Assembly (NCBI RefSeq): GCF_048403405.1
Contig: NZ_CP183129.1
Reading direction: 5' to 3' (one strand)
From: Escherichia coli
GTDB taxonomy: Bacteria; Pseudomonadota; Gammaproteobacteria; Enterobacterales; Enterobacteriaceae
Length of the DNA stretch: 64,000 bases
The translations under genes were made by a program, and so were the position numbers. The notes beneath the pieces are model-generated. The model ran no database searches. It was not told the origin of the DNA and saw nothing but the letters and a program-made list of their open reading frames with translations. Shown piece after piece: positions 786 through 32,569 of this stretch. Positions within the stretch are counted from its first letter, which is position 1. Every line of letters begins with the position of its first letter.

Positions 786-6849
<6,064 letters not shown>

Positions 6850-6855
6850 TACTTA

Positions 6856-6885
6856 CCCGCAGAAATCATTCTGCGGGTATTAAGT
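6856..6885 (+). terminator. Putative intrinsic terminator after astE
   Basis: Inverted repeat cccgcagaa-atca-ttctgcggg just after the astE stop, followed by a U-containing stretch. Confidence 0.5.
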
Positions 6886-7093
6886 TACTTTCTTATAAAT
6901 TAATACAGATTAATCCTGGTTATTTGCTTTATTAATCACCAGTCATCCGGTATAGTTCTTCATAATCTCTGCAAAATCATCGTGTTGTAATATTCTCTCA
7001 TTACTCTCCATCAAATTTTCTTTTTTTCTCCATAATTGGCGCAAAAGTGTTTTTTACACTTTCATTGTTTTACCGTTGCTCTGATTAATTGAC

Positions 7094-7109
7094 GCTAAAG
7101 TCAGTAAAG
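7094..7109 (+). promoter_or_regulatory. Possible CpxR-type direct repeat in the spy promoter region
   Basis: cTAAAgtcaGTAAAg resembles the GTAAA-N5-GTAAA motif but the spacing is one nt short; spy is a known Cpx/Bae envelope-stress target. Confidence 0.3.
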
Positions 7110-7178
7110 TTAATCTCGTCAACACGGCACGCTACTTAAGAAAGCCGTAATAAATAACTGAAAGGAAGGATATAGAAT

Positions 7179-7664
7179 ATGCGTAAATTAACTGCACTGT
7201 TTGTTGCCTCTACCCTGGCTCTTGGCGCGGCTAACCTGGCCCATGCCGCAGACACCACTACCTCAGCACCGGCTGACGCGAAGCCGATGATGCACCACAA
7301 AGGCAAGTTCGGTCCGCATCAGGACATGATGTTCAAAGACCTGAACCTGACCGACGCGCAGAAACAGCAGATCCGCGAAATCATGAAAGGCCAGCGTGAC
7401 CAGATGAAACGTCCGCCGCTGGAAGAACGCCGCGCAATGCATGACATCATTGCCAGCGATACCTTCGATAAAGCAAAAGCTGAAGCGCAGATCGCAAAAA
7501 TGGAAGAACAGCGCAAAGCTAACATGCTGGCGCACATGGAAACCCAGAACAAGATTTACAACATCCTGACGCCGGAACAGAAAAAGCAATTTAATGCTAA
7601 TTTTGAGAAGCGTCTGACAGAACGTCCAGCGGCAAAAGGTAAAATGCCTGCAACTGCTGAATAA
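7179..7664 (+). CDS. spy: Periplasmic ATP-independent chaperone Spy
   Basis: 161-aa ORF with N-terminal signal peptide (MRKLTALFVASTLALGAANLAHA) and charged helical body. Confidence 0.95.
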   Translation: MRKLTALFVASTLALGAANLAHAADTTTSAPADAKPMMHHKGKFGPHQDMMFKDLNLTDAQKQQIREIMKGQRDQMKRPPLEERRAMHDIIASDTFDKAKAEAQIAKMEEQRKANMLAHMETQNKIYNILTPEQKKQFNANFEKRLTERPAAKGKMPATAE

Positions 7665-7685
7665 TCTTTCAGCCAAAAAACTTAA

Positions 7686-7750
7686 GACCGCCGGTCTTGT
7701 CCACTACCTTGCAGTAATGCGGTGGACAGGATCGGCGGTTTTCTTTTTTG
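7686..7750 (+). terminator. Extended intrinsic terminator after spy
   Basis: Nested inverted repeats (gaccgccgg...gtccac...gtggac...cggcggt) followed by ttttctttttt. Confidence 0.7.
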
Positions 7751-7788
7751 TTCTCAAACAGATGCAAAAAAAGCCTGATCGCCACTAA

Positions 7789-9289
<1,501 letters not shown>

Positions 9290-32497: not shown

Positions 32498-32569
32498 GGC
32501 CTTCAAGTAGCACTGTCTGTGGAGCCTTTGGGCTTCACAGGCATTGTTCGCCTTTGTTTCATTTATTAA

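Follow-up and report, generated by a model that had tools for sequence, protein, structure and literature searches.

The window, i.e., the whole stretch of 64,000 nt of the Escherichia coli contig NZ_CP183129.1 that was analyzed here, carries the gene order astB-astE, spy (+), ves (+), and cho (−). The spy coding sequence, whose identity is taken from the annotation of E. coli genomes, occupies 7179-7664 on the plus strand and is the gene terminated by the hairpin described below; ves lies downstream at 7867-8442 on the same strand, and cho, at 8402-9289 on the minus strand, overlaps the end of ves. When 5,426 complete E. coli genomes were searched with a query of 801 nt around the hairpin, 5,424 contained it at an identity of at least 95%, the match covering annotated spy and ves; the ORF upstream of the hairpin is annotated as spy in 5,422 of the 5,426, with ves downstream.

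The spy gene is almost silent without envelope stress. Upstream of it, TTTTTCTCCATAATTGGC at 7023-7040 fits the consensus TTTTTCTCCATDATTGGC, which we take to be that of the BaeR box. The 5′ UTR contains a hairpin (ACGGCA...GCCGT, 7124-7148) that is preceded by a conserved CTCGTCAACACGG; the stem is kept between genera and the loop is strongly variable. The spy mRNA is bracketed by stable structures, i.e., this 5′-UTR hairpin and the hairpin at its 3′ end. The FliA (sigma-28) promoter of ves, AACGTAAATCACCCGAGTTGCCGATAAC, is located on the plus strand at 7788-7815, approximately 40 nt past the T-run of the 3′ hairpin, and is identical to the FliA-dependent ves promoter motif given in PMC4183435 Table 2. 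Motifs of the type CTAAGGTAAATC...TGCCGATAA, which resemble this promoter, are found in Citrobacter, Enterobacter, and Yokenella loci. Where ves is missing, as in the loci of Salmonella, Klebsiella, and Raoultella, among others, spy and cho directly face each other as convergent genes. Nine loci were noted with this arrangement, including that of Salmonella enterica (L084), where the called coordinates of the segment 1750-1765 put the cho stop codon (TAA, minus strand, 1761-1763) within the spy T-tract.

The hairpin and its identity

An earlier note on this DNA had described an unusually long compound terminator after spy, composed of two nested inverted repeats followed by a T-run. The repeats and the T-run were borne out, at the place where they had been seen, by a repeat search and by folding: the arms of the inverted repeat in the DNA, 7677-7704 and 7722-7749, are 28 nt long and 79% complementary, and both the outer repeat ACCGCCG/CGGCGGT and the inner repeat GTCCAC/GTGGAC are perfect. 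The compound architecture, however, was not recovered, since G·U and A-U pairs bridge the outer and inner repeats into one uninterrupted helix, in agreement with an alignment of 77 sequences. On the plus strand, the RNA helix consists of 22 contiguous pairs (7684-7705 with 7721-7742), above which an apical helix of 3 pairs is formed by 7711-7713 and 7718-7720. The minimum free energy of the hairpin is −44.7 kcal/mol, compared with −19.6 ± 3.0 kcal/mol in 200 dinucleotide shuffles (z = −8.25), none of which folded as well.

The hairpin begins 20 nt past the spy stop codon, on the same strand as the gene, and the independent FliA promoter of ves lies further downstream. Its 5′ arm, AAGACCGCCGGTCTTGTCCACT (7684-7705, +), was delimited from the minimum free energy structure and from the 22-pair helix in the 77 sequences; ACCGCCG in this arm is a portion of the scarcely varying stem base, the alignment columns A7, A9, and C10-G15 are invariant, and AAGA is able to form pairs with the four U that open the tail. 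The apical region (7706-7720, +) varies in sequence between genera and contains the 3-bp apical helix in E. coli, and the 3′ arm, GGTGGACAGGATCGGCGGTTTT (7721-7742, +), is defined by the minimum free energy structure and the alignment. The U-tract TTTTCTTTTTT (7739-7749, +) follows a conserved T4-6 C T3-4 pattern, and an A-run, CAAAAAA (7674-7680, +), situated 3 nt upstream of the hairpin, mirrors the T-run. The element thus displays the features of an intrinsic terminator, i.e., a G+C-rich hairpin on the coding strand with the base ACCGCCG/CGGCGG and a U-rich tract directly 3′ of it.

When hairpins followed by a T-run were ranked on both strands of the 64-kb window, the spy site came first among 257 candidates (−40.3 kcal/mol, 25 pairs), the next independent site reaching −29.2 kcal/mol and the median being −6.2 kcal/mol; the view that the structure is larger than a minimal terminator is therefore upheld, with 22 contiguous pairs in the top hairpin of the window. 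The second most stable site (approximately 32498-32564, −29.2 kcal/mol, 23 pairs, +) scores on the minus strand too and, judging by its position, presumably lies in the thrS-infC-rpmI-rplT-pheM region. A simple terminator scan, restricted to loops of 3-8 nt and to a count of no more than 20 pairs, overlooked the plus-strand spy hairpin because of these two limits.

Of the 90 positions of the E. coli K-12 part ECK120029600 (sequence in PMC6723963 Table 1), 88 are identical in the segment 7668-7757, and both differences sit in the distal T-tract, which reads TTTTCTTTTTTG here and TTTTCTTTTCTC in K-12. The form TTTTCTTTTTTG is a minority allele: over the 96 nt of 7665-7760, an identity to the window of at least 99% is reached in only 369 of 5,424 E. 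coli genomes, most of which carry the K-12 form TTTTCTTTTCTC. With the ORF at 7179-7664 being spy and the element being its published Rho-independent terminator, the earlier placement of a terminator after spy is confirmed; the element is almost certainly the intrinsic (Rho-independent) terminator of the spy transcription unit, i.e., the ECK120029600 of RegulonDB and of synthetic biology.

The spy terminator is thus already known and experimentally characterized; it ranks among the natural terminators that have been studied best, and it is a standard synthetic-biology part. By the usual conversion, in which efficiency equals 1 − 1/strength, ECK120029600 terminates approximately 99.7% of transcription. 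The part has been reused in PMC5731345, PMC6723963, and PMC6294894. Its termination strength, determined for the K-12 allele in a reporter construct, is 374 according to Chen et al. 2013, as quoted in PMC5731345 Table 1, and the same table gives 380 ± 98 for the K-12 allele by RNA-seq within a genetic circuit; it has been described as the strongest E. coli terminator of the Chen et al. 2013 survey. Expression of a YFP reporter was abolished by ECK120029600 in the E. coli strains DH10B and MG1655 (PMC6723963). In vitro release with yeast Pol I was shown for the K-12 spy terminator in PMC6294894, in which the stem is given as 21 bp; the pausing and termination of the polymerase were weaker when this stem was cut to 10 bp or when the U-tract was destroyed. 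The segment replaced in the short-stem mutant of that work, TCTTGTCCACTACCTTGCAGTAATGCGGTGGACAGGATC, corresponds to 7695-7733 of the window.

Conservation across the Enterobacteriaceae

One genome per species was scanned for spy, which yielded 80 loci from approximately 20 genera of Enterobacteriaceae. The hairpin is present in every locus that includes downstream DNA, and it occupies the same place after spy in 79 loci from approximately 20 genera. Among 77 distinct sequences, 97.5% of the cells of the 22-pair helix are paired, and 9 of the 22 pairs display double (compensatory) changes; none of 500 shuffles reached any of these measures, and sliding the 3′ partner lowered pairing to 36-53%. 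The ten pairs at the foot of the stem, AAGACCGCCG/CGGCGGUUUU, are close to fixed in the 77 sequences, five being invariant and the rest having at most 2-3 changes. At the four-fold degenerate sites of spy in these genomes, by contrast, identity to the window amounts to only 46-83%, and of the 16 columns that allow a comparison, a single one is invariant.

The geometry of the element is likewise constrained. Of 79 loci, 77 have a hairpin that spans 49-52 nt, 65 have its start 17-23 nt past the stop codon, and 75 have at least 6 T among the first 8 bases of the tail. Among more distant Spy orthologues, which were collected from metagenome and SRA contigs, those with 57-66% amino acid identity retain a hairpin of approximately 50 nt with a base of the GAGACCGCCG...CGGCGGTTTT type, and in those with 50-56% identity from the same contigs, a hairpin with such a base is absent. 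The Citrobacter freundii complex contains an extra stable hairpin of approximately 40 nt (e.g., ATTCACGCGGTGTG...CACCGTGTGAA), inserted past the stop codon and ahead of the conserved terminator; eleven loci carry this extra hairpin, approximately 30-70 nt past the spy stop, and two loci have other insertions between the stop codon and the terminator.

A second, terminator-like hairpin, ACCCGCAGAAATCATTCTGCGGGT (6856-6879), is located just after astE, only 300 nt upstream; of its T-runs, the one on the minus strand is the better. An exact-motif search matched this hairpin in the K-12-like locus only, so that it is not detectably conserved even within Escherichia; the conservation of the spy hairpin is therefore not a regional property. 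Since the spy hairpin is, moreover, kept whatever lies downstream, its function is tied to spy. The near-constant 22-bp stem, the span of approximately 50 nt, and the conserved base argue for strong selection on terminator strength, on the protection of the 3′ end, or on both in this massively inducible gene. These comparative data are a modest addition to a known terminator.

Termination, proposed insulation, and further readings of the 3′ end

In the mechanism that we propose, RNA polymerase would transcribe the G+C-rich dyad and pause at the U-tract UUUUCUUUUUU, while the nascent RNA would zip into the 22-bp hairpin, with its base ACCGCCG/CGGCGG abutting the U-tract; the hairpin would then strip the weak rU:dA hybrid, and the transcript would be released approximately 7-9 nt past the stem. 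The terminator stands between spy, which is driven by Bae/Cpx and very highly induced, and the flagellar-regulon promoter of ves, and its strength may be explained by a need to insulate adjacent downstream DNA from the very high transcription of spy upon Bae/Cpx induction. In Escherichia, Citrobacter, and Enterobacter, the insulated neighbor would be the ves promoter, which depends on FliA; in Salmonella and Klebsiella, it would be the cho gene in convergent orientation. The presence of either directly downstream fits the role of an insulator.

The upper 10-12 pairs, the constant span of approximately 50 nt, and the ten near-fixed base pairs are not obviously required for termination, and a second function is therefore possible. 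The upper half of the stem, which is kept by compensatory evolution, probably shields the 3′ end of the spy mRNA from 3′-to-5′ exonucleases, the main argument being that the part least needed for termination is preserved. As judged from the sequence, an mRNA-stabilizing 3′ structure is plausible.

The hairpin might also act as a bidirectional terminator that stops minus-strand RNA, arising from cho read-through or antisense transcription, before it enters spy, which we regard as doubtful, albeit with several observations in its favor. The minus strand folds well (−34.5 kcal/mol, z = −4.35), and the Escherichia A-run at 7674-7680, which mirrors the T-run, places GUUUUUUG past the hairpin on that strand. 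Additionally, the overlap of cho with the end of ves leaves cho no room for a terminator of its own, and in loci without ves the gene is convergent on spy, with its called stop codon within the spy T-tract in S. enterica. However, only 10 of 79 loci have an A-run of at least 5 upstream of the hairpin, and the minus strand of S. enterica gives a weak fold (−25.4 kcal/mol, z = −2.2) with a tail, CUUAAAUUAU, that is poor in U. In E. coli, moreover, approximately 650 nt of antisense-ves RNA would have to be transcribed, and such RNA is probably terminated by Rho first. A literature search found no measurement of the spy terminator in reverse orientation. U-tracts are thus present on both strands here, yet they are not conserved on both strands across the 79 loci. 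Although the hairpin may also work in reverse in Escherichia, its conservation does not stem from such a function, and termination of spy remains the preferred reading.

Two further features are situated just upstream of the terminator. The first is a block of 25 nt within the coding sequence, AATTTTGAGAAGCGTCTGACAGAAC (7599-7623, +), which comprises spy codons 141-148 and lies 42 nt before the stop codon. It is identical in all 39 aligned sequences and exact in 70 of the 80 loci, and the peptide patterns with which the loci were collected do not cover its codons. Five of its eight codons, including the rare ACA, are presumably non-preferred in E. coli. The block differs in Klebsiella and Raoultella by CGT to CAT and in its last codon, and two distant orthologues have synonymous changes within it. 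A shorter segment, GGTAAAATG (7638-7646, +), is also invariant within the spy coding sequence, and elsewhere in spy, the commonest-codon conservation has a median of 0.77. No second copy of the block was found in E. coli, and the exact sequence gave no match in a literature search.

The second feature is a hairpin, GCTGAA-TAATCT-TTCAGC (7656-7673, +), that holds the spy stop codon in its loop. At least five helix types that differ by compensatory changes occur across genera, with variants such as ACCGA/TCGGT in Enterobacter, GCTCAG/CTGAGC in Cedecea, GATCAG/CTGATC in Buttiauxella, and CTGCCGA/TCGGTAG in some Citrobacter. The stem score is 5 or more in 68% of 66 distinct contexts, as against 3.8% of shuffles. 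CUUUCAG past the spy stop is complementary to CUGAAAG before the Shine-Dalgarno sequence, and in E. coli the coding block pairs with the loop of the 5′-UTR hairpin at −18.8 kcal/mol. Pairing between the 5′ and 3′ ends of the spy mRNA was rejected, as it does not hold across genera (mean z = −0.5, with z < −2 in only 4 of 70).

Together with the invariant GGUAAAAUG, the stop-codon hairpin with its covariation, and the 22-bp hairpin of constrained length, the block could make the last approximately 150 nt of the spy mRNA a conserved RNA module with a role beyond termination, for which we see a slight likelihood. In one form, at the same low likelihood, the module would be an RNase E-processed regulatory or sponge RNA, induced by envelope stress, with the invariant block as its seed, i.e., a Bae/Cpx counterpart of CpxQ; in the other, held with equal reserve, it would be a cis element that sets the lifetime of the spy mRNA through a protein or an sRNA bound at the block. 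If the block and the stop-codon hairpin are signals at the RNA level, spy would be, after cpxP, a further stress gene whose 3′ end is regulatory. These two features are the residual novelty of the locus.

The narrower proposal that the spy 3′ end also yields a stable, processed regulatory RNA resembling CpxQ, in which the long hairpin would serve as the protective 3′ end, appears still less probable. The paralogue offers a precedent, since cpxQ is annotated 9 nt past the cpxP stop codon in K-12, and the coding block is invariant at the nucleotide level despite the five of eight codons that we take to be non-preferred. An AA↓UUU motif that resembles the RNase E consensus, read by eye at the 5′ edge of the block (7599-7603), might mark a processing site, and an (ARN)5 run, likewise read by eye, may be present just upstream of the block. 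The block, furthermore, is predicted by RNAalifold to be almost unstructured and would thus be accessible, and the stop codon is surrounded by the covarying hairpin. On the other hand, the 17-23 nt between the stop codon and the hairpin contain no conserved single-stranded segment save the 3′ half of the stop-codon hairpin, and the architecture differs from that of CpxQ, which has approximately 35 unstructured nt, an 8-bp hairpin, and U8, whereas at spy the hairpin measures 22 bp and the U-tract is interrupted. The synonymous changes in the block of distant orthologues that still keep the hairpin indicate that the two features are not strictly coupled.

The K-12 RefSeq annotation contains cpxQ but no ncRNA at the 3′ end of spy, the supplements of the Term-seq study of Adams 2021 and of the Hfq-CLASH study of Iosub 2020 have no mention of spy, and a full-text literature search retrieved no paper describing an RNA derived from the 3′ end of spy; the absences from Term-seq, CLASH, and the literature weigh little because spy is barely expressed without envelope stress. 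No sigma-70-like promoter was found in 6500-9000, and inspection by eye for an internal promoter of a short 3′ transcript gave no acceptable sigma-E, sigma-32, sigma-54, or sigma-28 match. The candidate cTGACA-N20-TAAAAT was rejected as a promoter, as its spacer of 20 nt is too long and it is non-conserved and without dyad symmetry. Read by eye, the complementarity of the block to CpxQ amounts to 5 bp only, and we know of no other sRNA with which it pairs convincingly. A search of 6800-8600 against Rfam at permissive thresholds returned only sub-threshold eukaryotic miRNA and snoRNA families, and CpxQ in K-12 is likewise missed at the gathering score, so that the negative outcome carries little weight. 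The suggestion in the earlier note that the terminator region is a source of a 3′-UTR-derived sRNA is accordingly not sustained, as the spacer has no conserved seed, K-12 has no annotation, the Term-seq and CLASH tables have no entry, and no paper reports such an RNA.

It is hardly likely that the constant helix of 22-24 bp is maintained as the site of a double-strand-RNA-binding factor, such as RNase III, which would cleave it and so set off rapid decay of the spy mRNA after stress, or ProQ, which would bind it and stabilize the mRNA. The 22 contiguous pairs fit the duplex of approximately 22 bp that an RNase III dimer accommodates, as stated in the introduction of PMC6212723, and the entire stem, not the base alone, is kept by compensatory changes within a constant span of 49-52 nt. 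A stable stem, however, is predicted equally by exonuclease protection and by fast co-transcriptional folding. Furthermore, spy is not mentioned in the main text of PMC6212723 and is absent from the supplements of the RNase III site survey of Gordon 2017 (PMC5371410), although both absences are weak evidence given the poor expression of spy under the conditions used. The remaining proposal, that this long imperfect palindrome in intergenic DNA belongs to a dispersed repeat family such as REP/BIME or MITE, one copy of which happened to insert after spy, has practically no likelihood and is refuted by copy number and orthology, since the 96-nt query in sensitive mode found a median of 1 and a maximum of 2 places per genome in 5,424 E. 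coli genomes, and the element has an orthologous position after spy in 79 loci from approximately 20 genera. Four matches labeled as plasmid are E. coli DNA and not vectors, three being 4.8-4.9 Mb in length, i.e., apparently mislabeled chromosomes, and one being 420 kb.

Comparison with known systems

Analogous to bidirectional terminators between convergent genes, the Escherichia spy element has a symmetric arrangement of A-run, hairpin, and T-run, and cho is convergent on spy in Salmonella and Klebsiella. However, the genes that flank the element in E. coli are co-directional, and the A-run is not conserved.

CpxQ, which is derived from the cpxP mRNA and is Hfq-dependent, provides a second point of comparison, as cpxP and spy are paralogous genes of the same Cpx envelope-stress regulon and in both the terminator lies shortly past the stop codon. 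The two differ in that CpxQ has an unstructured seed of approximately 35 nt and is an annotated ncRNA, whereas the spy 3′ UTR has no conserved unpaired stretch and no annotated or reported RNA.

Canonical intrinsic terminators such as the thrL attenuator ECK120033737 share with the spy element a G+C-rich stem with a U-tract directly 3′ of it, and both have an A-rich stretch 5′ of the stem and are located just past a stop codon. The spy stem is, however, much longer (22 bp, approximately −42 kcal/mol) than that of thrL ECK120033737 (approximately −25 kcal/mol; PMC6723963 Table 1), and its U-tract is broken by a conserved C, unlike those of canonical intrinsic terminators such as thrL.

The closest relative of the element is ECK120029600 itself, the spy terminator of K-12, which derives from the same locus and is identical in hairpin, loop, and proximal U-tract, the divergence of the two alleles being that in the distal T-tract described above. 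The conservation of the spy hairpin may help to explain the good performance of this natural part.
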